A stretch of 64,000 nt of DNA from an uncultured archaeon. Lineage in GTDB: Archaea; Asgardarchaeota; Thorarchaeia; Thorarchaeales; Thorarchaeaceae. The translations under genes and the position numbers were made by a program. Every line of letters starts with the position of its first letter. Positions within the stretch are counted from its first letter, which is position 1. Below are positions 1 through 38,496 of this stretch, piece by piece. The stretch lies in the NCBI GenBank assembly GCA_964473825.1, contig CAYYQL010000002.1:192001-256000 (forward strand), in the 5' to 3' direction. Below the pieces are notes generated by a model, which did not search any database, was not told the DNA's origin, and worked only from the letters and a program-made list of their open reading frames with translations.

Positions 1-1
1 C

Positions 2-1003
2 ATCAACTTCCTGTCTGATGCACTACATCATATCAGGCATCTGATTGATGTGCCCAGACCTGATTTTGTTGCGTGTGACCTGAACCCGCAGTTTCTCACC
101 ACCGAATTAGGCGAAGAGATGAGTAAAGACCTTGATGCTCCATTGGTCAGAGTTCAGCATCATCATGCACATCTAGCGGGACTGATTGCAGAGCATAATC
201 TGCCCCCTGATACTCGTATTGTGTGTATTACGGTTGATGGGTACGGATATGCACCAACAGGAGAAGCTTGGGGTGGTGATATCCTTCTAGGAAACTATGA
301 TGAATACCAACGAGTCGGAGGGCTTAGACATAGTGTCCTTCCCGGAGGAGATTTGTCAGCACGATATGCAGCAAGGTCTCTGTTGGGGATCTTAGATGAT
401 GAGATTGATCTGTCGCAGATACTAGAATTGTCAAGGGGTTATGATATTGCACTTGGAACCCCAACCGATCCCAATACTATTGCTATGGTGTATGAGTCAT
501 TAAGAAAAGGTATCAATACTGTCGATACGACGAGTGCCGGCAGATTTCTGGATGCGGTTTCATTAGCTATAGGCGTGTGTGGAGAGAATACATACGATGG
601 AGAATGTCCAATGCGTCTTGAAGCTATAGCACACGATAGGGGACTCCAACTCGAAGCTCACTTCCTCGAGGCTCACGATGGTCTGAATCTGGATACAAGA
701 GACTTGTTATTACAAGTAATACAACTGAGGAAATCAGAAGTGCCACAAGAGGGGCTTGCATACACAGCCCTACATACCTTAGGTGCAAGCCTAGCTGATG
801 CAAGTTGTGATATCGCGGAACAACATGGGCTTCAACATATCGGTCTCTCAGGAGGAGTCGCACTGAATAGGATTGTAACACGATCTGTGATTAATCAGGT
901 TAACAAGAGAGGATTAACGCCGCTTATCCACAAGCAAGTACCACCTGGCGACGGAGGAATCTCTCTCGGACAGCTTGCTATTGGGGCAAAGAAGCTTTCT
1001 TGA
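2..1003 (+). CDS. hypF: Hydrogenase maturation carbamoyltransferase HypF, C-terminal part (5'-truncated by window)
   Basis: VQHHHAH, DGYGY..G..WGG, TTSAGRFLDA, LSGGVALN and VPPGDGGISLGQ motifs of the HypF Kae1-like domain. The frame is open from position 2. Confidence 0.95.
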   Translation: MNFLSDALHHIRHLIDVPRPDFVACDLNPQFLTTELGEEMSKDLDAPLVRVQHHHAHLAGLIAEHNLPPDTRIVCITVDGYGYAPTGEAWGGDILLGNYDEYQRVGGLRHSVLPGGDLSARYAARSLLGILDDEIDLSQILELSRGYDIALGTPTDPNTIAMVYESLRKGINTVDTTSAGRFLDAVSLAIGVCGENTYDGECPMRLEAIAHDRGLQLEAHFLEAHDGLNLDTRDLLLQVIQLRKSEVPQEGLAYTALHTLGASLADASCDIAEQHGLQHIGLSGGVALNRIVTRSVINQVNKRGLTPLIHKQVPPGDGGISLGQLAIGAKKLS

Positions 1004-1038
1004 GTGTGTATTATCTATAATACACATCTAACTTTGGG

Positions 1039-1653
1039 TCAGATGTATTTCCTAACTTCTTCCAGGCCTCTCTTGAAAGCAGCCTTGTTTATGGATTCAA
1101 ACCTACCGGGAAAGGATGACGCGATGGTCTCTAAGGCAGTCTTCTCGCTAATCGGTGTAATTGACGAAGCTATAACTGCCCCCAACATGACCATGTTCAT
1201 CGACCGGGGACTGCCGGCATCCTTTGCGAACTTCATAGCATCAAATTTGATTATCTTTTCAGTGAAATTCCGCAAGGAGGATTCTATGATTTCTTCAGAA
1301 GGATATTCTGCTTTTCCCATAGAAACTGCAACAGGATAAACAACATGCGAGTTCATGAGTACTTGACCGCTTGGTTTGATCACGGAAATCTCTCTTAGAG
1401 TTTCAGCCGGTTCAAATCCGACAAGGATGTCTGCGGTTCCGGTATCGACAATCGGCCCTCTAACGTCTGAACCAATTCGTACAGTACAGACTACGTGACC
1501 CCCTCTCTGTGCCATCCCATGAATCTCGCCCACTCGGACGTTGAGTCCATCTGCCAGTGCAGCCTTGGCCATTATCTCAGCTAGCGTGAGAACGCCCTGA
1601 CCTCCAACTCCTGAAATCACTATGTTCAAAATATCAGCTGAGTCTTCACTCAC
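1039..1653 (-). CDS. iorB: Indolepyruvate:ferredoxin oxidoreductase beta subunit
   Basis: GVGGQGVL, EIHGMAQRGGHV and NMVMLGA motifs. The GTG start at 1653 follows a GGAGG RBS (the ORF track extends to 1722). Directly downstream of iorA. Confidence 0.95.
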   Translation of the reverse strand: MSEDSADILNIVISGVGGQGVLTLAEIMAKAALADGLNVRVGEIHGMAQRGGHVVCTVRIGSDVRGPIVDTGTADILVGFEPAETLREISVIKPSGQVLMNSHVVYPVAVSMGKAEYPSEEIIESSLRNFTEKIIKFDAMKFAKDAGSPRSMNMVMLGAVIASSITPISEKTALETIASSFPGRFESINKAAFKRGLEEVRKYI

Positions 1654-1655
1654 AT

Positions 1656-3548
1656 CTATTCCTCCTTCTGCTTGATTGCACCCTGCGGACATACTTCTAC
1701 ACAGGTGCCACAGAGATTGCATAATGTTTCGTCTATCACAGCCTTGCCTGTTTCAGGATCTTCATACATGGCTGGGCATGACAACCGATTGAGACAGCGT
1801 TTGCATGCGTTACAGATCTCGGGATCGACATAGTATTGAGACGGGTACTCTTCCGTCCTTCGTCTTTCTGCTGCCGTGAGCAAGGCACATGGTTCTCTCG
1901 ATACGAGAACTGCAGGTGCCTGGTTCTCACGTACCCAGTTCACCATCTCTCGAACCTCCTTGACCATATCTGCAACAGAATCGAATGGCCGAATAGTCTT
2001 GACATACTCTACTCCAAGACCTTGGCAGACCTTGGCTATATCTAGGGGTTCAACTTGTTTTTGCATGCCGGTTAGACCCGTACCCGGATGTGGCTGATGA
2101 CCAGTCATTGCTGTAGTGCGATTGTCTAATACAACAAGAGAAACAGGATGCTGATTGTAGACTGCATTTGCAACACCGGCGAGGCCAGATGCGAAGAACG
2201 TACTATCCCCAATTGTTGCAACCACATCTTGATCGGTTACCTGTGCAAGCCCACAGGCAGTTGTTATAGAGGATCCCATATCAAAGAGTATGTCTGCGGT
2301 TTCAAGTGGAGGGGCGATACTCAGCGTATAACATCCAATATCTGAGGGGTAGATTGCCTTTCCGCGAGTTGCCGTCTTTATGGCATAATAGCTTGCCCGA
2401 TGAGGACATCCAGCACAGAGGAGAGGAGGTCGTGGTGGAATGTCAGGGAGCTCTGCTGCCTTCTCTTCAAGTGCTTCCCAGAGAGTTGGTGTATTACGAT
2501 TAATAGCCTCTGATATTCCCTTCATGACGATCCGAGGACTGTACTCATATGTTCTAGAGAAGTATCCTTGTTCCTTTCCCAGAATGTCAACATCGACTTC
2601 TCTCAGTTGAGCAATCCTGCGAGTGTGTGTTTCCAAGAAGGGTTCAAGCTCCTCTACAATGACTACTTTCGAATGACGCCTCAAGAAATCGGAAATCTTG
2701 TCTTCTGGGACAGGATGGGTCATACCAAGTTTCAGTACTTCAGCATTAAGATTCATGATTGAGAGAGATTCCACGACGTAGTTGTATGCTACGCCGCTTG
2801 TGATTATGCCCAGTTCGCCCTCACCCTCAGTGAAGTTGAGATTGCTGGATTCTGAAATGCTCTTGGCTTTCTCAATCTGTTGGAGCAACCAAGGATGACG
2901 TGTTCTTGCAACTGATGGAACCGGGACAAATCGGAACGGTTCCTTTTCGAATTCTACATGCTTGGGACGATCTTGAATGGGCCCGAAAGTAACAGGGGAT
3001 CGCGAGTGATTTACTCGCGTAGTTGTTCGAAGAACCACTGGAAGCTCCAGTTTCTCGGAGATTTCATAGATTTCCAATAGCATACTCTTTGCTTCTGCAG
3101 GGTCAGCGGGCTCTACCATAGGCATATTTGCCATCAGTGAGTAGTATCTGGAATCATTCTCGTTCTGAGAACTCCACATGCTGGGGTCATCGGCTACCAC
3201 AATGATCATGCCTCCCCGCACACCAACATATGCTAGGGTCATGAAAGGGTCTGCGGCCACATTCAGTCCTGGCCCCTTGCATACCATCATTGATCGCACT
3301 CCTGCAACAGCAGCCGCTCCTGCTACCTCCATTGCAACCTTTTCATTGCTACTGAACTCAAAATAGAAATTGGGAATGTGAGGAGCCATTGAAAACAAGT
3401 TGTTTCCTATCTCACTACTCGGCGTTCCTGGATAGAGAGCCACAAGGCGAACACCTGCCTCCAGGGTACCCCGGGCAATCGCCTCATTAGCAAGTAAGAG
3501 GTGAGTGGCCCCAACACAATCCGCCAGAAGTTCGTTCCTTTTGGTCAT
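1656..3548 (-). CDS. iorA: Indolepyruvate:ferredoxin oxidoreductase alpha subunit
   Basis: YPGTPSSEI, NEKVAME, ADDP, LCAGCPHR, DIGCY, IGDSTF and LDNRTTAMTGHQPHP motifs, plus a C-terminal 2x[4Fe-4S] ferredoxin domain. Confidence 0.96.
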   Translation of the reverse strand: MTKRNELLADCVGATHLLLANEAIARGTLEAGVRLVALYPGTPSSEIGNNLFSMAPHIPNFYFEFSSNEKVAMEVAGAAAVAGVRSMMVCKGPGLNVAADPFMTLAYVGVRGGMIIVVADDPSMWSSQNENDSRYYSLMANMPMVEPADPAEAKSMLLEIYEISEKLELPVVLRTTTRVNHSRSPVTFGPIQDRPKHVEFEKEPFRFVPVPSVARTRHPWLLQQIEKAKSISESSNLNFTEGEGELGIITSGVAYNYVVESLSIMNLNAEVLKLGMTHPVPEDKISDFLRRHSKVVIVEELEPFLETHTRRIAQLREVDVDILGKEQGYFSRTYEYSPRIVMKGISEAINRNTPTLWEALEEKAAELPDIPPRPPLLCAGCPHRASYYAIKTATRGKAIYPSDIGCYTLSIAPPLETADILFDMGSSITTACGLAQVTDQDVVATIGDSTFFASGLAGVANAVYNQHPVSLVVLDNRTTAMTGHQPHPGTGLTGMQKQVEPLDIAKVCQGLGVEYVKTIRPFDSVADMVKEVREMVNWVRENQAPAVLVSREPCALLTAAERRRTEEYPSQYYVDPEICNACKRCLNRLSCPAMYEDPETGKAVIDETLCNLCGTCVEVCPQGAIKQKEE

Positions 3549-3643
3549 TTCAGTGCCTCACTAGGACGATCATCCACAAAGACGAACGAGCAACAATAGG
3601 AAATGTGTATCAGTCTTTTGGTTCGTGATATACTAACGTCTTC

Positions 3644-3661
3644 TTAGAACATGTGTTCCAA
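3644..3661. promoter_or_regulatory. Palindromic operator-like box (GAAC-N4-GTTC), copy 1, left of the ORB pair
   Basis: TTAGAACATGTGTTCCAA. Its reverse complement matches copy 2 at 17/18 positions. Confidence 0.6.
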
Positions 3662-3670
3662 GCGATTCTA

Positions 3671-3841
3671 GACCCCTTTATTTCCAGTAGAGCTTCGTGT
3701 CGATCGGTTCCCGTTCGCTTAATTAACCAAAACTATAAATAGCTATTAGGTCAGCTGTCCTTATCTCCATTTTAATACAATACACTACTACCCGCTGTTG
3801 TAGTACCCCATTTTTTAAACTCTAGTGGAAACGAAGGGGTG
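3671..3841. other. oriC: Putative replication origin (oriC): two inverted ORB elements flanking an AT-rich unwinding element
   Basis: Minus-strand CTCTACTGGAAATAAAGGGGTC (3671-3692) and plus-strand CTCTAGTGGAAACGAAGGGGTG (3820-3841) are 18/22 identical. Both fit the archaeal ORB pattern (TCCAnTGGAAA-N-G-string). The 127-bp spacer has an AT-rich core at about 3719-3790. Confidence 0.75.
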
Positions 3842-3877
3842 AACCGGGAGATTCCGGATCTACTCATTCATTATAGT

Positions 3878-3895
3878 TTGGAACACATGTTCCAA
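3878..3895. promoter_or_regulatory. Palindromic operator-like box, copy 2, right of the ORB pair
   Basis: TTGGAACACATGTTCCAA, a near-perfect 18-bp palindrome. Confidence 0.6.
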
Positions 3896-3897
3896 TT

Positions 3898-4188
3898 CTA
3901 CACTTTATCGAATTGGACAACTTCAAAAACAACAGTGGAGAGAATATCGTTGTATTTCTTGAAAAGCTGGTCAAACATACTCTTACAAGTGTCAGGTACG
4001 AGAATAGCAGAGTTGGCAACTGCTTCGGAAGCTGAGCATTGATCTAGCAATCCAGGTTTCCGCTTCTCCTTCTTACCACTCTTTGTCTTCCAAGAATAGA
4101 CAAAACCGTACAATTCCTTAGTAAAGGCTACTCTTCTTGCATTTGTCTGACGTGCCTTCTCACAGTCATAGACATACAGATAGACCAT
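3898..4188 (-). CDS. Small basic protein with a Cas2/VapD-like (ferredoxin-fold) signature, not CRISPR-linked
   Basis: N-terminal YLYVYD followed by RR..F.KEL.G and a later SAILVP strand resembles the Cas2 pattern (hhhYD...RR..L...G...Q.SVF). It has a Lys-rich insertion (WKTKSGKKEKRK). Confidence 0.55.
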   Translation of the reverse strand: MVYLYVYDCEKARQTNARRVAFTKELYGFVYSWKTKSGKKEKRKPGLLDQCSASEAVANSAILVPDTCKSMFDQLFKKYNDILSTVVFEVVQFDKV

Positions 4189-4206
4189 GCTACTATCCCA
4201 AGACTA

Positions 4207-4221
4207 AGAACACATGTTCCA
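4207..4221. promoter_or_regulatory. Palindromic operator-like box, copy 3, in the promoter of the 96-aa gene
   Basis: AAGAACACATGTTCCA lies about 20-35 bp upstream of the ATG at 4188. Confidence 0.55.
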
Positions 4222-4331
4222 GTATTCAAACAGTGTATTACCGGCATAATCTCTCAGACGGAAAGATTAATGCAGGGGAAAAAACGCAAGTGGTTCTCGT
4301 GGCTACCTAAACATTATGAGGTGACTTTCGA

Positions 4332-5636
4332 GTGAATAAGATTGGTATTAGAAAAGAAGAGAAAGCATTTGAAAGACGTGTGCCGCTTGTGCCATCTCAT
4401 GTATCACAATTGGTCAAGGATTACGATATAGATGTCGTTTTAGAACCTAATGAACAACGCGTCTTTCCTGAAAGTGCATACTCACAAGTAGGTGCATCCA
4501 TCTCCTCGTTGAAGGGAGATAGAGCGGATGTAATCCTTGGGATCAAGGAGATGCCATTAGGCTTCTTTGAGAAGGACAAGGTGTACGTTTTCTTCAGCCA
4601 CACAATCAAGGGCCAAGAACACAACATGGACATGCTGCAAGACTTGATAGATTCTGGAGCCACACTTATTGACTATGAATGCGTCACTAACGAAAGAGGG
4701 ACCCGTCTCATCTACTTCGGAAACTGGGCAGGGATGGCAGGAATGTCGGACACCTTACGAGTTTTCGGAGAACTCCTTGACAGGAAACGAATTGCTCCAA
4801 ACCCCTTCTCGGACATGAAGCCAACCCTAGATTGTGATGGTCTCGACGGTCTTCGTGAGGTCTTCCAACAAGTTGCACAACGCATTAAGGAAGATGGACT
4901 TCCTGCTTCATTGGTTCCATTGGTAGTTGGGTTTGCTGGCTACGGTAATGTTTCTCGTGGTGCTCAAGAGATGTTTGACATCCTGCCTCACGAAGCCGTG
5001 GATCCTAGAAGTCTCTCTACCTTAGAATCTCGAAGTGACATCATCTACAAATGTGTGTTCAAAGAGAAGGACATGGTGGAGCCCAGGAGCCCAGACATTC
5101 AATTCGATTTACAGGACTACTACAAGTACGGCAGCGAGAAATACTCGGGATTATTCCATAGATACGCTCCATATCTCACCATTCTAATGAACTGTATATA
5201 CTGGACAAAGAAATATCCACGACTTCTGACTAGGGAACAGATTCGCGACATCTGGCAAAGATCTAACAACCGTCTCTTAGTCATCGGTGACATATCCTGT
5301 GATATTCGGGGCGCAATAGAGTTCACTGTTCGGACTACAAAGCCCGACAAACCTGCCTTCACATACTTAATAGACAAGGATGAGGCGAAGCTAGAGATTA
5401 CTGAGGAGGGACCGGTTGTCATGGCCATTGACAATCTGCCTTGTGAACTTCCTCGTGAATCATCAACATCTTTTAGTGAAACATTACTCGAGTTCATACC
5501 GCCCCTTGCAAAGGCCGATTTCACAGCTGACTTTCAACAACTAGAACTCCCAAATGAGCTAAAGAAGGCTGTTATCGTCTATCGTGGAGAACTGACGGAA
5601 GAATATGAACATCTGAAGAAATACTTAGAGAAGTGA
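4332..5636 (+). CDS. Lysine-ketoglutarate reductase / saccharopine dehydrogenase (lysine-forming), AlaDH/PNT fold
   Basis: GIRKE..ERRVPL.P, GIKE, FFSHTIKGQ, LIDYE, GYGNVSRGA, DISCD.RGAIEF and IDNLPCELPRESS motifs of the AASS LKR domain. Confidence 0.9.
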   Translation: MNKIGIRKEEKAFERRVPLVPSHVSQLVKDYDIDVVLEPNEQRVFPESAYSQVGASISSLKGDRADVILGIKEMPLGFFEKDKVYVFFSHTIKGQEHNMDMLQDLIDSGATLIDYECVTNERGTRLIYFGNWAGMAGMSDTLRVFGELLDRKRIAPNPFSDMKPTLDCDGLDGLREVFQQVAQRIKEDGLPASLVPLVVGFAGYGNVSRGAQEMFDILPHEAVDPRSLSTLESRSDIIYKCVFKEKDMVEPRSPDIQFDLQDYYKYGSEKYSGLFHRYAPYLTILMNCIYWTKKYPRLLTREQIRDIWQRSNNRLLVIGDISCDIRGAIEFTVRTTKPDKPAFTYLIDKDEAKLEITEEGPVVMAIDNLPCELPRESSTSFSETLLEFIPPLAKADFTADFQQLELPNELKKAVIVYRGELTEEYEHLKKYLEK

Positions 5637-6979
5637 CTACAATGAAACGAGTGTTATGCCTAGGTGCTGGACTGGTTGCAAAACCCTATGTACAGTATCT
5701 TTCTGATAGGGGATATCATGTAACCGTGGCCAGTCGGACTGAGAAAAAAGCACAGAAGCTCATACGTGAATGTGCCAGCGCAGAAGCTGTGAGATTTGAC
5801 ATAAGTAAAGATGACGAGCTCCTAAACAAACTGATATCAGAGGCTGACTTGGTCTGCTCACTCCTTCCCTACACATTCCATGTCAAAGCTGCCAAGGTCG
5901 CATTGAAATTTGGAAAGCATTTCTGTACAACCTCTTACATTTCCGATGACATGCAGGATCTTGATGCCGCTGCTAAAGCGGCTAGAGTGCTACTTCTTAA
6001 TGAATGTGGGGTCGATCCCGGAATTGATCACATGAGTGCTATGAAGATTATTGACGAAGCTCATGAGAATGGCGGTAAAATAGTCAGTTTCACTTCGTTC
6101 ACAGGGGGTCTTCCCGCACCAGATGCCAATAACAATCCCTTCGGGTACAAGCTATCGTGGAGTCCGCGAGGAGTTTTACTTGCCGGAAGAAACGATGCAC
6201 ACTTTCTGAAAGATGGAGAAGAGGTGACCATTTCGGGCAAGGATCTCTTTGACAACTGCAGGATTATGGAAGTTCCAGGCATGGGCCAATTCGAAGGATA
6301 TCCCAATCGTGACAGTATGTCATACATTCGTATCTATGACATCCCAGAAACACAGACTATGCTACGTGGCACTTACCGGAATGTGGGCTGGTGTTCTACA
6401 CTCAAGAAGATTGCAGACCTCGGTCTACTCTCTCTCAACGAAGAGTCGTTCAAAGGAATGACATACTCTCAAATGCTTCGCGATGCAATAGGGTCTGAGG
6501 GGGGCAACATACGGCTAGTGGTAGCCAAAGAGATTGATGTTGAATCCGATAGCCCCATCCTAGACCGACTTGAATGGTTGGGGCTATTCTCGGACATTGA
6601 AATACCTGAGGACATTGACACCAGACTTGATGCTCTTTGCCATCTCTTTGTAGAAAAGATGCAATATGCACCTGGAGAACGTGATATGATTGTAATGCAT
6701 CACGAGTTTGTAATCCAATATCCAGATAGGAAGGAGAAAGTCACGTCGACATTGGTTGACTATGGAATCCCTGACGGAAACAGTTCCATGTCCAGAACTG
6801 TTGCATTGCCCGTCGCAATTGCCAGCCGTATGATTCTCGAAGGAACAATCAATGTCACAGGGGTACACAGACCAATCATTCCCAAGATTTACAATCCAAT
6901 ATTGGATGAGCTTGAGGAATTAGGCATCAAGTTCGAAGAAAAACGGACTGTATTGGATACTGATACACAGAGCATTTAG
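5633..6979 (+). CDS. Saccharopine dehydrogenase (glutamate-forming) / saccharopine reductase
   Basis: LGAGLVA, SLLPYTFH, TTSY, NECGVDPGIDHM, GGLPAP..NNNPFGYKLSWSPRG, EGYPNRDS and MSRTVALP motifs. Overlaps the upstream stop (GTGA). Confidence 0.93.
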   Translation: MTTMKRVLCLGAGLVAKPYVQYLSDRGYHVTVASRTEKKAQKLIRECASAEAVRFDISKDDELLNKLISEADLVCSLLPYTFHVKAAKVALKFGKHFCTTSYISDDMQDLDAAAKAARVLLLNECGVDPGIDHMSAMKIIDEAHENGGKIVSFTSFTGGLPAPDANNNPFGYKLSWSPRGVLLAGRNDAHFLKDGEEVTISGKDLFDNCRIMEVPGMGQFEGYPNRDSMSYIRIYDIPETQTMLRGTYRNVGWCSTLKKIADLGLLSLNEESFKGMTYSQMLRDAIGSEGGNIRLVVAKEIDVESDSPILDRLEWLGLFSDIEIPEDIDTRLDALCHLFVEKMQYAPGERDMIVMHHEFVIQYPDRKEKVTSTLVDYGIPDGNSSMSRTVALPVAIASRMILEGTINVTGVHRPIIPKIYNPILDELEELGIKFEEKRTVLDTDTQSI

Positions 6980-6998
6980 AGTGATTGCGTAGCATATA

Positions 6999-7631
6999 CT
7001 ACTCAAATTGAATCTCAATAGCTGCAAGGATCTCTTCAGCCCGTTGAGTTTCACTCTGCACTTCGTCCAGCTCAGTTCTTAGTCTATAGGTATAACCGGA
7101 CCTATTGCCGAATCTCTCAAGATGACCCTTACCCCTGTCCCACATTCTTGCTAAGTATGTAGAGGCTGTACTTTTTGGCAAATCTTCGCCAAATGTCCCC
7201 TCATATATCTCTGTAACATCTAATGAGGAGAACTTGCCATGCTTGAATGAGGCATAAATTATCATCTGCATCTTCTCGAAATTACTCATAGATTCGGGGA
7301 TTACCTTCTCAAACGAAAGCGTCTGTTTTTCCTGAGAAACAGGTGATAGCGTCTGGCCAGTTGTTGTTTCAAGAAAAACACGGAACTTTGCAAGCATCTC
7401 ATCCACGGTGCCTTTCACCTGAAAGCTCGACTCTTCTCGTGTGGCTTCATTAGAGATTACGATTTTGAAATCAAATGGCGACTCGGTCATTGCAAGGATC
7501 TTCTTGAATCTCATCAATGCCTCATCCGGTGTAACATACTTGCATTGGAAGATCTCGTCCAGGCCTGGAGCTGAGCTATAAGTGAATTCATAGATGAAAC
7601 CAGTTCGTTCACTTCCCAAAGTATATTCCAC
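6999..7631 (-). CDS. Hypothetical protein with a C-terminal winged-helix DNA-binding domain
   Basis: C-terminal FSSLDVTEIYE..FGEDLPKSTASTYLARM...G.LER.G...GYTYRL has wHTH helix-turn-helix-wing spacing. Confidence 0.6.
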   Translation of the reverse strand: MEYTLGSERTGFIYEFTYSSAPGLDEIFQCKYVTPDEALMRFKKILAMTESPFDFKIVISNEATREESSFQVKGTVDEMLAKFRVFLETTTGQTLSPVSQEKQTLSFEKVIPESMSNFEKMQMIIYASFKHGKFSSLDVTEIYEGTFGEDLPKSTASTYLARMWDRGKGHLERFGNRSGYTYRLRTELDEVQSETQRAEEILAAIEIQFE

Positions 7632-7641
7632 TCCAGTCTTC

Positions 7642-8055
7642 TATTCACAAGGACATAGCATTGGAAGCTAGATAAGTGTGAGTATGTGAATCGCGCATAT
7701 CGGGATAATGGCAATATATCCTCCAAGTATCCATATCAAGCTTGTCAGCCCCTTGCATTAATGAATTAGATACTAAGAACCCTCTGACACAACATAACGA
7801 GATTATTAGGCCTTTAAATCCAAATTAAGAGGTTTCTTCCATGCTCTCCGATATTCACAGCAATTATAATGCTGTGAATAACCATAGGCGTTATAAGAAT
7901 TCTCCTACCGAATCTCCACTGGAAACGAAGGGGTGTCGCTATTCACAATAGCTAGCGCACTTATGGGCTCCGTTTGCCTCTTAGATGACAATATGACTAG
8001 TCTTTGTCATAGAACATTCACAAATATGGCGCCATTCACAAATTCGTATTGTGAA
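7642..8055. repeat. Array of (T/C)ATTCACA repeats in both orientations, including a perfect 11-bp inverted repeat
   Basis: Copies at 7642, 7685 (rc), 7852, 7873 (rc), 7940, 8016, 8034 and 8049 (rc, TTGTGAA). TATTCACAGCA-N7-TGCTGTGAATA occupies 7852-7880. Confidence 0.65.
7914..7935 (+). promoter_or_regulatory. ORB element (third copy)
   Basis: CTCCACTGGAAACGAAGGGGTG is 20/22 identical to the ORB at 3820-3841 and is preceded by AT-rich DNA. Confidence 0.7.
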
Positions 8056-8096
8056 CAAGTTTCTTCGTGAGGATCTCAGTGATGATGATACGATTC

Positions 8097-9104
8097 TTAT
8101 GTCGCATATTCAAGTGGAATCATGTAGTCCGTGCTTCTTTCTCCAAGAACAAACTGACTGTACTCCTTACCACTATCTAGCTCGCTAACCAGTTCAACTG
8201 CTCCACTCACTTCAACAGTGCTACTCACACTAGCTTGTTCTGCAAATCTTCCTCGAAAACTCACAATTCTCTCAACTGCTGAACACGAATCGCAGTCAAC
8301 AAGATACATAGAGGGTGTGAATATAGAATCAGAGTTGTCTGTTATTCTGCAGATTTCACTTCGCAGTCCCAACTGCCTATAGATCCTGTCTTCATACTCA
8401 TAATCTAACTCCGATGGAAGTTTGACCAGCTTGATGTAGAACTCCCTATCTCTGAAGATCCCCTGCAGGTGCTTCTTCTCCTCGATTCTTCCTGAAACTG
8501 CTGAATTAGAACCTATTCCTCCCCAACGGAAATTCACATGTTCACACAGACGTCCTCCGCTGTATCTTTCAACGATTCCATCTCTGAAAAGGCCATCCAT
8601 TGTTGAATACACCTTTCTTGCAGCTTCAGAACCATAGACAACTATGTCGATATCTGACGAATCGATACTAAGACTCAGCAGTTGAGATCCCGTGATACCT
8701 ACCTCTTCCAACTCTATATCCGCCGATTCGACTATTCTGCTCACAAGTGCTAGCGAATCCGACTCCAAAGCAGTCATATGATGTCCAAGGTCCCTTAATT
8801 CTCCAAGTGCGTCGGTAGCTTCTAGTATGCAGGCGATATCTTTCCGATCTACAGCCTGTAATCTGCGTCCGTGGTTTTCATCATACCGTAGATACCTGGG
8901 AAATCTCTTCTCTAGATATTTCTCTCGTTCCCTTAGATCGTATATCTTCCGGTACCTCTTCCCAGAACGAGTCATTCGGTCTCCTCTTTCTGACGGTACA
9001 TATCTTAGATATGCAATCACTCTGTCTTTCGGATGCACTATCCCTTTTACCTCAAAAATGAGGTCCTCCCTTGTAACAAGAAAAGATCCCTCAACTAGTA
9101 GCAT
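8097..9104 (-). CDS. Archaeal predicted nucleotidyltransferase (COG1665-like)
   Basis: VKG..HP.DR.IAYLRYVP, and GITGS.L.......SDIDIVVYG (pol-beta NTase GS...DxD motif). Confidence 0.8.
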   Translation of the reverse strand: MLLVEGSFLVTREDLIFEVKGIVHPKDRVIAYLRYVPSERGDRMTRSGKRYRKIYDLREREKYLEKRFPRYLRYDENHGRRLQAVDRKDIACILEATDALGELRDLGHHMTALESDSLALVSRIVESADIELEEVGITGSQLLSLSIDSSDIDIVVYGSEAARKVYSTMDGLFRDGIVERYSGGRLCEHVNFRWGGIGSNSAVSGRIEEKKHLQGIFRDREFYIKLVKLPSELDYEYEDRIYRQLGLRSEICRITDNSDSIFTPSMYLVDCDSCSAVERIVSFRGRFAEQASVSSTVEVSGAVELVSELDSGKEYSQFVLGERSTDYMIPLEYAT

Positions 9105-9145
9105 AGTATCGCTGTCATCGATTCAGATTAAAAGGACTATGTCGT

Positions 9146-10369
9146 TTGTTCCAAACAATGAACCCAAAATTGAATGTTCGCTCTGATTTCCCAATTCTCA
9201 TGAAATACCCCGATCTAGTATATCTCGACTCGACCAGTACGTCTTTAGTCCCCCAAGTGACTATCGAAGCAACAGAGAGATTCATGAAACACACACTTGT
9301 ATCTTCTAGGCGTGGTGCCTATGGACTGGCAGTCGATGGTAGTAGAATGGTGGACGATACTCGGAGATCACTTGCACAAATCCTAAATACCAATGACTCT
9401 CAACTCTCTTTTCAGAAATCTATCGCATCGGCTTGTGCGTCATTTGCATACGGGTACGACTGGGAATCCTCGGGAAAGAACAAGGTCGTTGTTGCACAAA
9501 GCGAGGAACATAACATCTTCGTATCACTTCTGCGTGTTTGTCAAATACTAGACCTTGAGTTCGAAATGATACCTGTTGATAGCAGCGATGTCCTGAATCT
9601 TGATGAGCTGACGAATGCGATAGACGATAGAACCGGCATTGTAGCCATCAGTCATGTCACTACGGGTCTTGGAATCGTTAATCCTCTTCATGAAGCATCA
9701 GAGATTGCTAGAGAACACAATGCTCTTCTCCTGACAGATGCCTCTCGCTCCATCGGATTCACGGAATTCGACATAACAACCATCCCTGCAGATATCATCT
9801 TGTTCTCGGCGAATATCGGTCTACTTGCTCCTCCTGGTCTTGCACTTCAATGGCATGCCATCAATATCCTGGACGATTTCTTGCCCGGCATACTGGGTGG
9901 CTCGGCAGTCACAGAAGTCGGAAGAGAATCATTCCAGATATCTAGAATACCCTACAGATTCGAATCTGATACTCTGAATCTTCCTGCAATTGCAGGTCTC
10001 GGTTCTTCCATTCAATACTTGGAGAGAATAGGCGTTGACAATGTTGTCGAATCTAATCGAAGGCTCTCAACCAGAGTTTCAAGAGAGCTAACCGAAAAAG
10101 AGAATATCACTCTATATGGAGAAAATCATGATCAGAGAACAATCTTTGGCTTCAACATCTTTGACGGTGACGAGCTCAACTGTCATGATGCAGCTCTCCT
10201 TCTTGATCAGGCCGGTATTGCCGTAAGGACTGGATTTCTCTGTGCTCATCCATCAATTCAAACAATTGCATCAAATGGTTTGATACAGATTTCCACTCAT
10301 TTCTACAATACGATTGAAGACATCGATTATGTCGGAGAAACACTCTCTTCAATCAGCAGAATGCTTTGA
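9146..10369 (+). CDS. SufS/CsdA-like class V aminotransferase-fold protein lacking the PLP lysine
   Basis: VRSDFPIL, VYLDSTST, DASRS, RFESDT.N and AVRTGFLCAHP motifs. The SGHK motif reads SANI. Confidence 0.8.
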   Translation: MFQTMNPKLNVRSDFPILMKYPDLVYLDSTSTSLVPQVTIEATERFMKHTLVSSRRGAYGLAVDGSRMVDDTRRSLAQILNTNDSQLSFQKSIASACASFAYGYDWESSGKNKVVVAQSEEHNIFVSLLRVCQILDLEFEMIPVDSSDVLNLDELTNAIDDRTGIVAISHVTTGLGIVNPLHEASEIAREHNALLLTDASRSIGFTEFDITTIPADIILFSANIGLLAPPGLALQWHAINILDDFLPGILGGSAVTEVGRESFQISRIPYRFESDTLNLPAIAGLGSSIQYLERIGVDNVVESNRRLSTRVSRELTEKENITLYGENHDQRTIFGFNIFDGDELNCHDAALLLDQAGIAVRTGFLCAHPSIQTIASNGLIQISTHFYNTIEDIDYVGETLSSISRML

Positions 10370-10372
10370 CCA

Positions 10373-10669
10373 TCAAAAAGTGAACGTTGGGGGATACATC
10401 ACAAAGTACTGTACCACCAATGACAACAGGATTCCACTCAAGACCAGCCCCTTTCCCTTTTTACCGTTGATATCAGTAAACCAGAGTATTGCCCCGACAA
10501 GCACCACTATGAACCCTGATACCCTGCCGATAAAAATTAGAAAGTCCCATATCTCTCCAAAATAACCTGCAATGAGAGCTGCAAAGTCCGACAGTACACT
10601 TGCCACCCAAAATGACCGAATCATCATCATTCGATGATAAGTAAAGACAATCTGATTTAAGCCCCTCAC
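10373..10669 (-). CDS. Small two-helix membrane protein, VirB2/TrbC (CedA1/TedC-type) pilin-like
   Basis: Two hydrophobic segments (GFIVVLVGAILWF and GLVLSGILLSLVVQYF) are joined by a basic loop (NGKKGKG). The real start may be ATG at 10630. Confidence 0.5.
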   Translation of the reverse strand: MRGLNQIVFTYHRMMMIRSFWVASVLSDFAALIAGYFGEIWDFLIFIGRVSGFIVVLVGAILWFTDINGKKGKGLVLSGILLSLVVQYFVMYPPTFTF

Positions 10670-12489
10670 AAGACAGTAACAGATTTCGCAAGATTTCTCG
10701 GTCGATCCGGGTCATAACCCTTCTTTCTGGCCATGTAATAGCTGAATATCTGAAGGGGCACAACATATGGCATCACAGAGAATTGTGATGGTACCCCCGG
10801 AGGAATCTCGAACACATAATCCGCCAGTCCTGCAATCTCAGTGTCGCCTTTTTCGATAACCGCGATAATCTCTGCTCCCCTAGCCTTCATCTCCATGATA
10901 TTCCCAATCAATCTACTTCTAGTATCATCTTTTGGAGCAACAAAAACCACAGGAAATCCCTTTTCTACCAGTGCAATGGGTCCATGTTTTGATTCTCCTG
11001 CAGAATAGCCTTCTGCATGATTGTATGCTATCTCTTTCAGCTTCAATGCTCCTTCGAATGCAGTCGCTATGGAGATCCCTCGACCTAGGAACAGGAAACT
11101 AGGCTTCTGGTAGTATATGCCTGCGAGTCTCCTTGCCATTTCTTCGTTCCGAGTTATTACCTCCGACACAGTGTTCGGAAGTTCCTTCAAAAATTCTTCT
11201 AGCCTCTTTAGCGAGTCCTTATTCATCACCTGTCTAATTCTTGCAGTAGATAGAGAGATTTGAGCAAGCGCAGTCAACTGCACCATGAAAGTCTTGGTTG
11301 CTGCCACTCCTATTTCAGGTCCGGCTTGGGTTAGCACAGTATGATCTGCAATCCGAGTAATCGAACTACCTAAGACATTCGTTACTGCAACAACTCGTGC
11401 CCCATTGGACTTCGCATACTTCACGGCCGAAATGGTATCTGTGGTTTCACCTGACTGTGTTATTGCTATCACACAAGTATTATCAGATATCGATTCATAT
11501 ACCGTATCTTCAAAGTCGCTTGCAATCTCAAATGTAGACAAGACACCAGAAATTGACGCTAACATATGACGCCCCGCCATTGCAGCATGTCCCGATGTTC
11601 CCATGGCAAGCAGAAAGATGTGTTTGGCGTTTGCTATAATCTGGGCTGCCCCGTCAATCATTTCCCTTCCAATGTGCAGTGTACTTCTTATTGCATCAGG
11701 TTGTTCGTGAATCTCCTTGAGCATAAAATGAGGATATCCACCTTTCTGTGCCTGATCAGCAGTCCAACTTATCTCAATCGTATCTCGTTCAACAGTTTCT
11801 CCAGACTCCAACTCTCGTATCTCAACACCATCTGTTTCGAGTACGGCGATTTCACCATCTAGTAGTAGAATCATGTCTTTAGTCATGGGGAGGAACGCAG
11901 GAATGTCTGAAGACACATACGAGGCCCCTTCCTTTCGACCTATAACCAGAGGGTTCCCATTTCTTGTACATACTATCTTGTTGGGTTCCTTGACATGCAT
12001 CGCCACAATAGCATAAGTCCCCTCAATTCGCTTTGTAACTTCAACGAGTGCCTGTTCCAAGCCTATCCCCTGTCTTATGGCATCTTCAATCAGATGAGGT
12101 ATCACCTCGGTATCGGTTTCAGATTCAAATGAATGCCCCTTATCCCTCAGATGCTGCCTTAATTCTAGGAAGTTGTCTATGACTCCATTGTGTACAACTG
12201 CTATGTTCCCACTGCAATCGAAGTGTGGATGTGCATTAAATAAAGAAGGAATACCATGTGTGGCCCACCTAGTATGACCAATGCCGATTTCTCCAGGCAG
12301 ATTATCCAGATCAAGACGCTTGTGAACCTCGTCAATTTTGCCCTCATCCTTCTTCGTGTGCAGTTCTCCATCCGCAATAGTGGTTATGCCCACCGAATCA
12401 TAACCCCGATACTCGAGACGTTTCAGAGCTTGATGTAGAAAGGGAGCTACTTGACCGCGTTTTTGCACTACACCAATTATGCCACACAC
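10666..12489 (-). CDS. glmS: Glutamine--fructose-6-phosphate transaminase (isomerizing)
   Basis: MCGIIG, LEYRGYDS, GHTRWATHG, SQSGET-like and AATKT motifs, with C-terminal PRNLAKSVTV. Confidence 0.98.
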   Translation of the reverse strand: MCGIIGVVQKRGQVAPFLHQALKRLEYRGYDSVGITTIADGELHTKKDEGKIDEVHKRLDLDNLPGEIGIGHTRWATHGIPSLFNAHPHFDCSGNIAVVHNGVIDNFLELRQHLRDKGHSFESETDTEVIPHLIEDAIRQGIGLEQALVEVTKRIEGTYAIVAMHVKEPNKIVCTRNGNPLVIGRKEGASYVSSDIPAFLPMTKDMILLLDGEIAVLETDGVEIRELESGETVERDTIEISWTADQAQKGGYPHFMLKEIHEQPDAIRSTLHIGREMIDGAAQIIANAKHIFLLAMGTSGHAAMAGRHMLASISGVLSTFEIASDFEDTVYESISDNTCVIAITQSGETTDTISAVKYAKSNGARVVAVTNVLGSSITRIADHTVLTQAGPEIGVAATKTFMVQLTALAQISLSTARIRQVMNKDSLKRLEEFLKELPNTVSEVITRNEEMARRLAGIYYQKPSFLFLGRGISIATAFEGALKLKEIAYNHAEGYSAGESKHGPIALVEKGFPVVFVAPKDDTRSRLIGNIMEMKARGAEIIAVIEKGDTEIAGLADYVFEIPPGVPSQFSVMPYVVPLQIFSYYMARKKGYDPDRPRNLAKSVTVL

Positions 12490-27570: not shown

Positions 27571-27667
27571 CCATTACTTTCGCTTACCTGTGCTCCTGGT
27601 GTACGATTAAGTGAACAGAGCGCAGAACGCTTTTAAGCATCTGCGTGACCTTCCATACTGGTCTGCA

Positions 27668-28867
27668 ATGTCACATGACTTCGTTGAAGACGAGCTGAGT
27701 CGACATAGTGTTTTCAAATCTGAACATTTCTTGTCAATCGATTATGTGCCAGAAGGCCTTCCTCATCGCGAAAAGGAGCTCCGAATGCTCGCTCAGACAT
27801 TCAAGACTCTCATCACTTCGCCTGGCCGAACAAGCATCAGACTCCTGATTGAGGGGCCCGTGGGCACGGGTAAGACAGCAGTGGCCAAGCGCTTCTCTGA
27901 GCAACTTGTACAAGCAGCCGATAGAAGAGACATAAGATTACACAAAGTTCACATCAATTGTCGTGTCAGTAAGAGTGTATATTTGGTGTACCTACGAATG
28001 CTTCGTGAGTTTAAACCTCGATTTCCAAAACGGGGCCACTCACCGCAGGAAATCCTTCAGATGCTTGTCGAGGTACTAGATAGGGAAGACAGGTATGTCC
28101 TCGTCATATTGGACGAACTAGACTATTTCATGAAGCAGCAGGGTGCGGACATTCTCTACGATCTGACTCGGTTAATGGATGACCGCTTGAACGCTCCTCA
28201 ACGAATTTCCATTATTGGCGTTGGTCGTCGAATTCCATTAGATAGTGATCTTCTTGATCAGAGTACCCGAAGCACTCTACAACGAAATATGCTACGATTT
28301 GACAAATACGACTTTTCCGCTCTTCTTGACATTCTAAGAGAACGAGTTTCCATGGCGTTTAAACCAGGTGCAATTATGAATGACACACTAGAATTGATAT
28401 GCAATATTGCATCTGAACGAGGCGATGCCCGATATGCAATCGAACTCCTGTGGCGTGCCGGCAAACAAGCAGACCGCGTTGAATCGGATGTGGTCATCCC
28501 TGACTATGCTCGCCAAGCAAAGGCCGATACTCACCCAGAACTCAGGAAAGAAGTCCTCACTACACTACCACTTCACAACAAACTGCTTCTTCTTGCTGCC
28601 ACTCGAAAACTGAAAGAGAATCGAGGGGCTTATGCAACTATAGGTGAAGTGGAAGAAATGTATGGTTCTATATGCGAGGAGTACGGGAAAGAACCCCGAG
28701 CACACACACAGGTGTGGGAGTGGGTTCAGGACCTGACTGCCCATGGTGTCATAGACACTCAACGTTCGGGTGCGGGTCAAAGGGGGCAGACCACAATGGT
28801 CGGCCTCTCAGATGTTCCAGCGCAAATGCTAGAACGCTTTCTAATTGAATTACTCGATAAGCGATAG
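27668..28867 (+). CDS. cdc6: Orc1/Cdc6 replication initiator
   Basis: LSIDYVP..LPHRE, GPVGTGKT, VHINC, ILDELD and GDARYAIELL motifs, plus a C-terminal wH domain (GQRGQT). The ORF track starts at 27611; ATG at 27668 is more likely. Confidence 0.96.
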   Translation: MSHDFVEDELSRHSVFKSEHFLSIDYVPEGLPHREKELRMLAQTFKTLITSPGRTSIRLLIEGPVGTGKTAVAKRFSEQLVQAADRRDIRLHKVHINCRVSKSVYLVYLRMLREFKPRFPKRGHSPQEILQMLVEVLDREDRYVLVILDELDYFMKQQGADILYDLTRLMDDRLNAPQRISIIGVGRRIPLDSDLLDQSTRSTLQRNMLRFDKYDFSALLDILRERVSMAFKPGAIMNDTLELICNIASERGDARYAIELLWRAGKQADRVESDVVIPDYARQAKADTHPELRKEVLTTLPLHNKLLLLAATRKLKENRGAYATIGEVEEMYGSICEEYGKEPRAHTQVWEWVQDLTAHGVIDTQRSGAGQRGQTTMVGLSDVPAQMLERFLIELLDKR

Positions 28868-37327: not shown

Positions 37328-38383
37328 CTACAGTAGCTTACCTCTCAGACGTTCCTTGATTGTCCTCACGAGATTAAGTGTTCCCTCTGTGCAGCGTCTT
37401 GGCTCCTGTCCAAGGTCTTCGTATACTGTGACTTCCAATCCTAGTAGTTCCTGAAGCACATTGAGAACGCCATTGCCTAGAACCTCAAGTTCGTAACCGC
37501 CCTCCAGGAAATACAGACATCGCCCTTGACTGAATCTCTTAGCTATGGCCTGAATTCGTCGATTCAATAGCGCAAGTCCTGCAAGAGTGATGCCCAGATT
37601 CGTCAGAGGATCCCGATGATGAGCATCGAAACCTGCAGAAACAAGAACAAACTCGGGTTCATAAATCCCCGCCAAAGGCTCGATGATTTCATCAACTAAC
37701 ACGCTATACGATGGATCTCCCGAACCAGGAACTAAGGGCAGATTCACTGTATAACCCTCTCCCTCGCCAACTCCTAACTCATCACTGAATCCCGAACCGG
37801 GAAAGAGAGTACGACCATGTTGATGAAGCCCAACATAAAGAACTCTGTCTGTGGAGTAGAATGCATTCTGTGTACCATTTCCGTGATGTGCATCATAATC
37901 GATTATCATCACTCGACTCAGATTCCATTTTCGAATGAGACGTATTGCTGCCACAGCTATGTTATTGACGAAACAGAAGCCGAAAGCCTTTTCGAATTCT
38001 GCATGGTGCCCTGGGGGTCTACAGAGAACAAGACCATTCTGACTGGTTTCTTGCATTATGCGGTCAATACCTAACGTTGAAGCACCAGCAGCAAGCATTG
38101 CTGCAACATAGGTATGCTCGTTTGCCATCGTATCTAACGTGAAGTATCCCCCACCAAGTTCGGACTTTTCCCTAAGCATTGAAAGATACTCACGACTATG
38201 AATAGGGTAGATGTCTTCGTGCTCAGCCTGTTCTGGACTGACGATTTGGAGGCCGCATTGGTCAAGCAGTCCTTTGCATCGAAGTAGATTTAGTGTATAG
38301 CGTAGCCGTTCAGGGCGTTCTGGATGACCCGGCGACATGGCGTGTTTCAGAAAGTTCTCATGATAGAGAAGATCTGTCTGCAT
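37328..38383 (-). CDS. Histone deacetylase family protein
   Basis: HPERPERL, RPPGHHA, GFC..NN, DYDAHHGNGTQ, SAGFDAH..DPL and LEGGY motifs. Confidence 0.93.
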   Translation of the reverse strand: MQTDLLYHENFLKHAMSPGHPERPERLRYTLNLLRCKGLLDQCGLQIVSPEQAEHEDIYPIHSREYLSMLREKSELGGGYFTLDTMANEHTYVAAMLAAGASTLGIDRIMQETSQNGLVLCRPPGHHAEFEKAFGFCFVNNIAVAAIRLIRKWNLSRVMIIDYDAHHGNGTQNAFYSTDRVLYVGLHQHGRTLFPGSGFSDELGVGEGEGYTVNLPLVPGSGDPSYSVLVDEIIEPLAGIYEPEFVLVSAGFDAHHRDPLTNLGITLAGLALLNRRIQAIAKRFSQGRCLYFLEGGYELEVLGNGVLNVLQELLGLEVTVYEDLGQEPRRCTEGTLNLVRTIKERLRGKLL

Positions 38384-38476
38384 GGCAACTCTATTCCTTG
38401 ATTGCTTTGTCCTCAAGAAGTAACTGTATTGATACTCATAAGTCTAGATGCTGGACAGCCATACTCAAACTAGAGA

Positions 38477-38496
38477 TTTAGAACACGTGTTCTAAA
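38477..38496. promoter_or_regulatory. Perfect 20-bp palindrome, same family as the oriC-flanking boxes
   Basis: TTTAGAACACGTGTTCTAAA lies in the divergent HDAC / tRNA-Pro promoter region. Confidence 0.55.

Follow-up and report, generated by a model that had tools for sequence, protein, structure and literature searches.

A candidate Orc1-dependent replication origin flanked by conserved palindromes in an uncultured Thorarchaeote

Introduction

Asgard archaea are the closest known relatives of eukaryotes. In a full-text search for "origin recognition box" together with Asgard names, none of the 15 ranked results contained the phrase, and no paper of the library searched describes origin recognition box (ORB) elements in these organisms. 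The DNA analysed here (the window) is a stretch of 64,000 nt from an uncultured Thorarchaeote (contig CAYYQL010000002.1, positions 192,001 to 256,000), in which a preliminary description had proposed a replication origin at positions 3644-3895. The question raised by this locus is whether a site that lies far from any initiator gene is a chromosomal origin, and what the palindromes that flank it stand for. From the sequence comparisons given below, positions 3644-3895 are very probably the core of an ancestral Orc1-dependent chromosomal origin (oriC1 type), the main one of this Thorarchaeote. The pattern search covered 40 relatives (41 genomes with this one, G000), 24 of them from the same family.

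ORB Elements and the AT-Rich Spacer

The elements of the core, together with a third ORB outside it, were as follows.

3672-3692, minus strand: ORB1, CTCTACTGGAAATAAAGGGGT on the minus strand, with its G-string facing away from the spacer
3693-3819, no strand: spacer of 127 nt, presumed unwinding element, with an AT-rich core at 3721-3785
3734-3741: TATA-like spacer motif TATAAATA, conserved and asymmetric
3752-3757: spacer motif CAGCTG, conserved
3761-3773: spacer motif TTATCTCCATTTT, conserved, candidate for a ucm-like site
3820-3840, plus strand: ORB2, CTCTAGTGGAAACGAAGGGGT, inverted with respect to ORB1, with an outward G-string
7914-7934, plus strand: ORB3, CTCCACTGGAAACGAAGGGGT, read as the relic of an orc1-proximal ORB

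The two inverted 22-bp elements with outward G-strings of the preliminary description were recovered at the same coordinates and with the same identity (18/22), and its 127-bp spacer had the right length. The spacer core was 71% AT, compared with 54.5% for the whole window, which placed it above the 99th percentile of 60-nt windows. All three ORB 21-mers agreed with the pan-archaeal consensus CTTCCAGTGGAAACGAAAGGGGT (PMC4153887), and they also fitted the euryarchaeal consensus (PMC1868953). An inverted ORB pair, with dyad core and G-string, and an AT-rich element between the boxes, as expected of an ORB-type origin, are both present.

The genome scan revealed no scatter of ORBs. With up to two mismatches, the 21-mer occurred at only three sites in the 3.27-Mb, 103-contig assembly, all within 4.3 kb, and one of these, ORB3, had been overlooked before. 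The matches are not due to chance, because none is expected in shuffles of the window and only three sites exist in the whole assembly. Moreover, the three spacer motifs formed invariant columns across 13 polarity-normalised cores of the family; a promoter, a ucm-like site and a loading determinant are all possible explanations for them. A search of window positions 1-12000 against Rfam gave no match.

Conservation of the Locus and the Position of orc1

The ORB pattern was present in 35 of the 41 genomes, and the reversed-pattern control gave no match in any of them. Most of the 24 family genomes searched contained a minus/plus ORB pair (142-148 nt from start to start) with a third ORB 4.1-4.3 kb off, and the pair recurred at the same locus, so that the conservation in relatives by which the earlier proposal was to be judged was observed. 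Inverted ORB pairs were found in other Asgard families too. When the window proteins were compared by tblastn with 18-kb loci, 12 family genomes shared one order: HypF, iorB, iorA, the origin, small96, AlaDH, the saccharopine dehydrogenase (SDH) gene, p210, ORB3, p335 and an aminotransferase gene, with HypF seen in 10 of the 12. No orc1 gene was found near the origin in these 12 loci, nor anywhere in the 18-kb loci of the 13 family genomes examined; adjacency to orc1 is usual for ORB origins, not obligatory.

The arrangement in other Asgard families was different. In eight of their genomes, ORB elements were located 1-3 kb from orc1. Six of these (G025, G026, G029, G030, G035 and G037) had a minus/plus ORB pair 1-2 kb from the gene, and in G031 and G036 the elements did not form a clean minus/plus pair. 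In all of the eight except G036, p210 and/or small96 stood beside or between the ORBs and orc1. The order was orc1, ORB, p210, small96, palindrome, ORB, ORB, palindrome, iorA in G025, and ORB, ORB, p210, ORB, orc1 in G029 and G035.

The Thorarchaeote genome has two clear Orc1/Cdc6 genes, one of them in the window.

27611-28867, plus strand: Orc1/Cdc6 paralogue of the window, not the origin-type initiator

The product of the other gene, on contig C30, was the best match of the genome to TIGR02928 (414 bits, against 293 bits for the window paralogue). In addition, the origin-linked Orc1 proteins of the outgroups shared 48-63% identity with the C30 Orc1 but no more than 29-32% with the window protein, and no ORB-like repeats were found in the surroundings of the window gene. 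The preliminary description had placed the origin far from cdc6. The distance of about 24 kb is right, but the gene at that distance is the paralogue; the origin-type orc1 lies on a separate contig, at least 73 kb from the origin.

Since other Asgard families have the ORB pair beside an orthologue of the C30 Orc1, the locus appears to be an ancestral orc1-linked oriC from which orc1 has moved away in this family. The ancestral order would have been ORB, DNA unwinding element (DUE), ORB, p210, ORB3 and orc1. In this family orc1 would have moved elsewhere and an AlaDH-SDH operon would have been inserted, which would leave an origin with no initiator gene next to it, and ORB3 at 7914 would mark the former place of orc1.

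Two further observations concern orc1 and the ORBs. The promoter of the C30 orc1 has two inverted ORB-like boxes, TCCAGTGGAAATG and CTCCATAGGAAATGGGGG, at most about 100 nt from the start codon (G000:C30:15175-15245), with a palindrome half-site, ATGTGTTCCAA, just upstream, which points to autoregulation or to a minimal second origin. In the microbial-mat samples that contain this Thorarchaeote, contigs of a second, more abundant organism matched only the ORB at 3820-3841 and the AlaDH start at 4332-4369, and the two matches were about 3.6 kb apart there, from which it follows that another Thorarchaeote with a related origin locus co-occurs.

GC Skew

The cumulative GC skew of contig C2 reached a plateau whose top lay at 189-199 kb and then fell; the positions of the ORB pair and of ORB3 on this contig are 195.7 and 199.9 kb, respectively. 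This turning point was by far the most prominent among contigs of at least 70 kb. The skew at third codon positions (GC3 skew), taken in coding orientation, was +0.091 for plus-strand and -0.044 for minus-strand genes left of the site, and -0.102 and +0.145, respectively, right of it. That is, the plus strand was G-rich at third codon positions on the left and C-rich on the right, for either coding strand. The switch does not stem from gene orientation, because the sign flips for genes of both strands. The skew extremum named beforehand as a check was therefore computed as a cumulative maximum accompanied by a strand-independent GC3 switch.

Strand asymmetry of the kind expected at an ORB-type origin was thus found, with a polarity that is the reverse of the bacterial one. 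The sign is opposite to the bacterial rule since the leading strand is C-rich. A previous study reported that, at third codon positions and in non-coding DNA, the leading strands of archaea are poor in G (preprint 10.1101/2023.11.15.567178). The same polarity, with the cumulative maximum at the ORB pair, was found in G026, G003 and G007. G026 is a single contig of 1,418,269 nt, and its orc1-adjacent ORB pair, at about 622.7 kb, lies at the cumulative maximum; the ORB pairs of G003 and G007 occupy quite different positions along their contigs. A second skew maximum, at about 60 kb of contig C1, was considered as an origin and rejected; it has no ORB, and a nearby G-string-like match is inside a coding sequence.

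For the closed Odinarchaeum chromosome, the origin was placed at the skew minimum and the genome was rotated to start there (PMC9246712). If the origin lies at the cumulative maximum in these genomes, origins set at minima may be termini.

Palindromes Flanking the ORB Pair

Three palindromes were located at the locus.

3644-3661, no strand: PAL1, TTAGAACATGTGTTCCAA, 18 nt, separated by 14 nt from the C-string end of ORB1, on its outer side, and by about 100 nt from the start codon of iorA, which it precedes
3878-3895, no strand: PAL2, TTGGAACACATGTTCCAA, 18 nt, between ORB2 and the 3' end of small96
4205-4222, no strand: PAL3, TAAGAACACATGTTCCAG, in the divergent small96/AlaDH-SDH promoter region, its position kept in the family loci

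The outer pair of 18-bp palindromes had been placed correctly, with 17/18 identity as inverted copies, and the two-layer architecture proposed for the site proved real and conserved, as palindromes flank the ORB pair in relatives. The preliminary description had missed PAL3 and 13 further copies elsewhere in the genome. Of the 13 fully aligned family cores, 12 had palindromes to the left and to the right of the ORB pair, and G012 had none on the right; three further cores (G001, G014 and G019) had them on either side as well. Most family loci had an additional palindrome upstream of small96. Once the cores had been oriented by their internal polarity, one palindrome was found at a fixed gap beyond the same ORB. 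This gap was 14 nt in 12 of 16 family genomes, and another genome had 13 nt. At 14 nt, the centre of the palindrome is about two turns of the helix away from the G-string end of the ORB.

Outside the family, G025, which belongs to the same order, showed the same nesting (palindrome, ORB, ORB, palindrome) with the centre CATATG, one copy lying about 90 nt upstream of iorA. G030, of another family, had two tandem palindromes on one side only, 16 nt beyond one ORB. Both copies of G025 and three of the four of G030 were at the origin, and two of the three copies of G040 shared the spacing of about 725 nt of the G030 origin copies. Taken together, seven of the nine copies in G025, G030 and G040 were at or probably at the origin. 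No palindrome was found in 11 other genomes of the phylum.

In G000, the extended form TTRGAACAYRTGTTCYAA occurred 16 times, compared with 0-5 times for permuted half-site controls. Fifteen of the 16 copies were intergenic, mostly beside metabolic genes; the neighbours included a histone deacetylase (HDAC)-family amidohydrolase, an enoyl-CoA hydratase, NeuB, an arginine deiminase/DDAH-like enzyme, an ATC hydrolase, a thiamine pyrophosphate (TPP) enzyme and an FAD/NAD oxidoreductase. The small genes beside palindromes (148, 119, 129, 121 and 88 aa) had no meaningful Pfam or NCBIfam match. From its form and distribution, the palindrome is the predicted site of a dimeric sequence-specific DNA-binding protein that would have been linked to the origin first and would have a wider regulon in this family. 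The origin link is placed first because the motif is rare outside the family and concentrated there at the origin. LexA was considered as the binder in view of the GAAC-N4-GTTC layout and was rejected, as the best match to PF01726 reached 19.7 bits, below the cut-off of 23.7 bits, and the neighbours of the palindromes are metabolic or unknown genes, not DNA-repair genes.

Two other copies are recorded here. A copy in the window at 38481-38492, TTAGAACACGTGTTCTAA, precedes a gene of the histone-deacetylase family (37328-38416, minus strand) by 65 nt, and this gene is counted in the palindrome regulon. On contig C6 (G000:C6:68480-68840), one ORB-like box, CTCCATCGGAAATGAAGGGGT, which lies within a G/C-rich palindrome, is followed by about 122 nt of AT-rich DNA and one 18-nt palindrome, upstream of a 129-aa gene. 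An ORB and a palindrome about 140 nt apart, as on C6, were also seen in G008, G011 and G021, and the ORB-like box of C6 recurred in G002. No skew change was found at the C6 locus. Orc1 and the palindrome factor may jointly regulate a promoter there, or the locus may be a dormant half-origin.

Inversions of the Core

When G000 was compared with its congener G002, the flanks were collinear up to and through the palindromes, whereas the roughly 215 nt between them (ORB, spacer, ORB) aligned only as the reverse complement. Relative to the flanking genes, the core was forward in 13 of 16 genomes and reverse in G000, G021 and G024, which represent three different genera. The flip in G000 is recent, since the other two members of its genus (G001 and G002) are forward. 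The breakpoints fall in the palindromes, where the central bases gave conflicting signals, as expected if recombination occurred inside them.

Because the two palindromes are direct as well as inverted repeats of one another, recombination can have either outcome, inversion or deletion of the core, of which only inversion would survive. Recombination between the two palindromes would thus have flipped the whole cassette, from one palindrome through ORB, DUE and ORB to the other, at least three times. As the spacer is asymmetric, a flip reverses it with respect to the replichores and to the neighbouring genes. The flips are most simply regarded as a tolerated by-product. Nine runs were found, all as contigs; in the four that cover the locus, a single orientation was seen, although contigs hide minority forms. 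No recombinase gene was found within 12 kb around the site.

Evaluation of the Origin and Alternative Explanations

The proposal of an Asgard oriC has held up, with canonical ORBs unique in the genome, a locus conserved across the phylum and linked to orc1 in outgroups, and the GC3 switch. The explanation as a whole, which takes in the origin, its history, the palindromes and the inversions, is also considered likely. Several points weigh against it. Initiation, the binding of Orc1 and the binding of the palindromes are all steps that we infer. The cumulative skew maximum is the opposite of the bacterial convention, under which it would mark a terminus; this objection is set aside solely on the strength of the preprint cited above and of G026, whose orc1-linked ORB pair has the same polarity. 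With a skew plateau about 10 kb in width and an assembly in 103 contigs, further origins are possible. As for the palindromes, most copies in the family sit in ordinary metabolic-gene promoters, PAL1 and PAL3 are placed as operators of iorA and AlaDH would be, and palindromes are not needed for ORB origins generally, given that several Asgard families have an ORB pair without them.

The palindromes are where the explanation is most open to challenge. Their position in metabolic promoters and the operator-like placement of PAL1 and PAL3 make a purely transcriptional role a serious alternative, and an action of the palindrome factor on replication, which competes with it, is put forward tentatively, at clearly less than an even chance. 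The strongest rival accepts the origin and takes the palindromes as operators of a metabolic transcription factor for iorAB and AlaDH-SDH (and small96), which came to lie near the ORBs through the shared intergenic region. It comes close to an even chance, as the 15 intergenic copies among the 16 in the genome stand mostly beside metabolic genes, PAL1 precedes iorA and PAL3 occupies the small96/AlaDH divergent region, and in G025 too a copy precedes iorA. However, a flip of the core carries the palindrome of the 14-nt gap along with its ORB, so that its neighbour gene changes; the G030 copies abut an ORB with neither iorA nor AlaDH nearby; and in G025, G030 and G040 seven of the nine copies are at or probably at the origin.

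A different objection is that the ORB pair no longer fires, being either a relic or an Orc1 site with a regulatory function alone, and that replication starts at another origin or by recombination-dependent initiation. The absence of orc1 from the locus would agree with this, as would the single ORB beside a palindrome in the C6 promoter, where the skew does not change. Moreover, Orc1-family proteins can serve as transcription regulators (PMC12490963), and origins are dispensable in some archaea (PMC5663688). Nevertheless, genera that have long been without orc1 at the locus show strong conservation of both ORBs, of the length of the spacer and of its motifs, and the GC3 skew switch occurs here in four genomes, at the most prominent skew turning point of the assembly. 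A silent relic is therefore regarded as improbable.

The inversions could also be read as a programmed switch, in which a recombinase or the palindrome binder flips the cassette within populations, thereby reorienting an internal promoter or changing how asymmetrically replication initiates. Such a switch would suit the three independent flips seen in the 16 genomes, whose breakpoints lie in the palindromes, and the conserved asymmetric TATA-like motif of the spacer. Still, neither a recombinase gene in the 12 kb around the site nor a second orientation in the contigs was seen (minority forms being hidden there), and rare homologous recombination between 18-nt palindromes about 220 nt apart suffices, which leaves a programmed switch with a slender chance. 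Finally, the cumulative skew peaks here as at bacterial termini, which would fit a replication terminus or some other landmark of the chromosome. This reading is hardly credible, since the site has canonical inverted ORBs with an AT-rich spacer, its orthologous site adjoins orc1 with the same skew polarity in other Asgard lineages, and a lack of G at third codon positions has been reported for the leading strands of archaea (10.1101/2023.11.15.567178).

Neighbouring Genes

The genes around the predicted origin are listed below. To the right, the order is small96, an AlaDH/PNT-like gene, the SDH gene, p210, ORB3, p335 and the aminotransferase gene.

1039-1722: iorB, beside iorA
1656-3548, minus strand: iorA-type 2-oxoacid:ferredoxin oxidoreductase alpha subunit, left neighbour
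3898-4188, minus strand: small96, 96-aa basic protein, right neighbour of the origin core
6999-7631, minus strand: p210, 210-aa gene, ancestral place between the ORB pair and orc1
7632-8096: intergenic region with seven ATTCACA/TGTGAAT boxes around ORB3, former orc1-p210 control region
8097-9104: p335, 335-aa gene without a family, in the place that orc1 occupies in outgroups

The small gene to the right had been called an orphan, which was not sustained, as small96 goes with the origin in several Asgard lineages. It adjoins the origin in Thorarchaeia and in at least three other Asgard families, with identities of 55-93% within the family and 36-40% in other families. It belongs to no Pfam or NCBIfam family, and the protein atlas gave only "hypothetical protein" clusters for it. 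The model of small96 (pLDDT 92) showed a ferredoxin-like fold with an inserted lysine-rich hairpin, and Asp8, at the end of strand 1, was invariant. In this it resembles Cas2, which likewise has a ferredoxin-like fold of about 90 aa and an invariant Asp that ends strand 1. However, many unrelated ferredoxin-like folds scored equally well or better, and no cas or CRISPR context was present within the 12 kb examined. A profile search of the PDB gave only a weak Cas2 match (E = 1.3), and the comparison with Cas2 chains (Foldseek, VIA-align), which ranked among the better structural matches, gave a TM of about 0.5, a root-mean-square deviation of 3.2-3.8 and a Z of 6.4-6.8, which is a generic fold match. 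A profile search over 1.84 billion representatives returned 21 clusters, of which the weak distant ones were uninformative, and none of the clusters checked was annotated as Cas2.

The product of p210 has a C-terminal winged helix of the generic MarR/PadR/RosR/BlaI kind; its matches include Cdt1 C-terminal domains, which do not stand out. Both small96 and p210 occurred in all palindrome-bearing genomes, but also in palindrome-less ones, so their distributions neither match nor exclude a role as the palindrome binder. For p335, the sole match was a Rad50 coiled-coil region, and it was very weak (E = 0.13). The ATTCACA/TGTGAAT cluster comprised 6-7 boxes in all 13 family loci examined and seven in G025, where it lies between orc1 and p210. 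These boxes are probably a p210 operator array in the former orc1 control region.

Proposed Mechanism and Significance

In the mechanism proposed here, the C30-encoded Orc1 would bind as monomers to the two inverted ORBs and to ORB3, and would then load MCM on the AT-rich spacer, from which replication would proceed bidirectionally. One palindrome and one ORB would form a composite of fixed spacing that moves together when the core flips. The palindrome factor would be an accessory origin protein whose regulon grew in this family to about 16 promoters, mostly of metabolic genes, a role comparable in principle to that of IHF/Fis at Escherichia coli oriC or of UBP at Sulfolobus oriC1. A bolder and rather unlikely version makes the composite a regulatory module of Asgard origins, in which a dimeric factor, possibly small96 or another protein, docks two helical turns outside the G-string end beside Orc1 and couples initiation or MCM egress to the metabolic state, the cassette being a mobile, invertible unit.

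The locus offers a testable origin architecture, with three ORBs, conserved spacer motifs, small96 and p210, and a site for a second factor, which can be traced from Odin-like genomes to Thorarchaeia. It also indicates that an origin can outlive the departure of its initiator gene, as orc1 is gone and the origin elements are still conserved.

Comparison with Known Systems

The Orc1-1-dependent oriC1 of Sulfolobus/Saccharolobus and its counterparts in Aeropyrum, Pyrococcus and haloarchaea (PMC12141716, PMC4153887, PMC3528665) share with this locus the inverted ORBs around an AT-rich element and a third ORB towards orc1. The ORB sequence here is almost identical to the pan-archaeal consensus (PMC4153887). 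In contrast to these origins, the initiator gene here is at least 73 kb from the ORBs, on a different contig, the third ORB is cut off from the pair by inserted metabolic genes (4 kb), conserved palindromes flank the ORBs, and the core is inverted in some species.

The palindrome has the same GAAC-N4-GTTC half-site layout as the LexA "Cheo box" of Gram-positive bacteria and mycobacteria, and exact 12-mers are found in LexA operator papers. It differs in that no LexA DNA-binding domain above the Pfam threshold was present in the genome and in that the neighbours are mostly metabolic genes. At E. coli oriC, IHF and Fis are accessory proteins with genome-wide regulons that sit at fixed positions beside the initiator boxes and modulate initiation (PMC12141716), as the palindrome factor might. 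The proteins and the initiator are unrelated to those considered here, where the function is only one that we infer.

The closest archaeal parallel is the ucm/UBP system of Sulfolobus origins, where an 11-bp motif inside the unwinding element is bound by a UBP monomer (Dhanaraju et al. 2025, PMC12141716). Both cases involve a second short origin motif whose binder has many other, mostly intergenic, sites in the genome, and UBP is a precedent for a non-initiator factor needed for origin activity (PMC12141716). Unlike ucm, the motif here lies outside the ORBs and is a palindrome of 18 nt, so that a dimer is implied. No UBP relative was identified, although no search with a UBP sequence was made. 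The fold matches of small96 included no UBP structures, from which absence should not be concluded. Should the palindrome factor act on initiation, it would join UBP as the second known case of a sequence-specific accessory protein at an archaeal origin, and origin accessory factors may be widespread in archaea.

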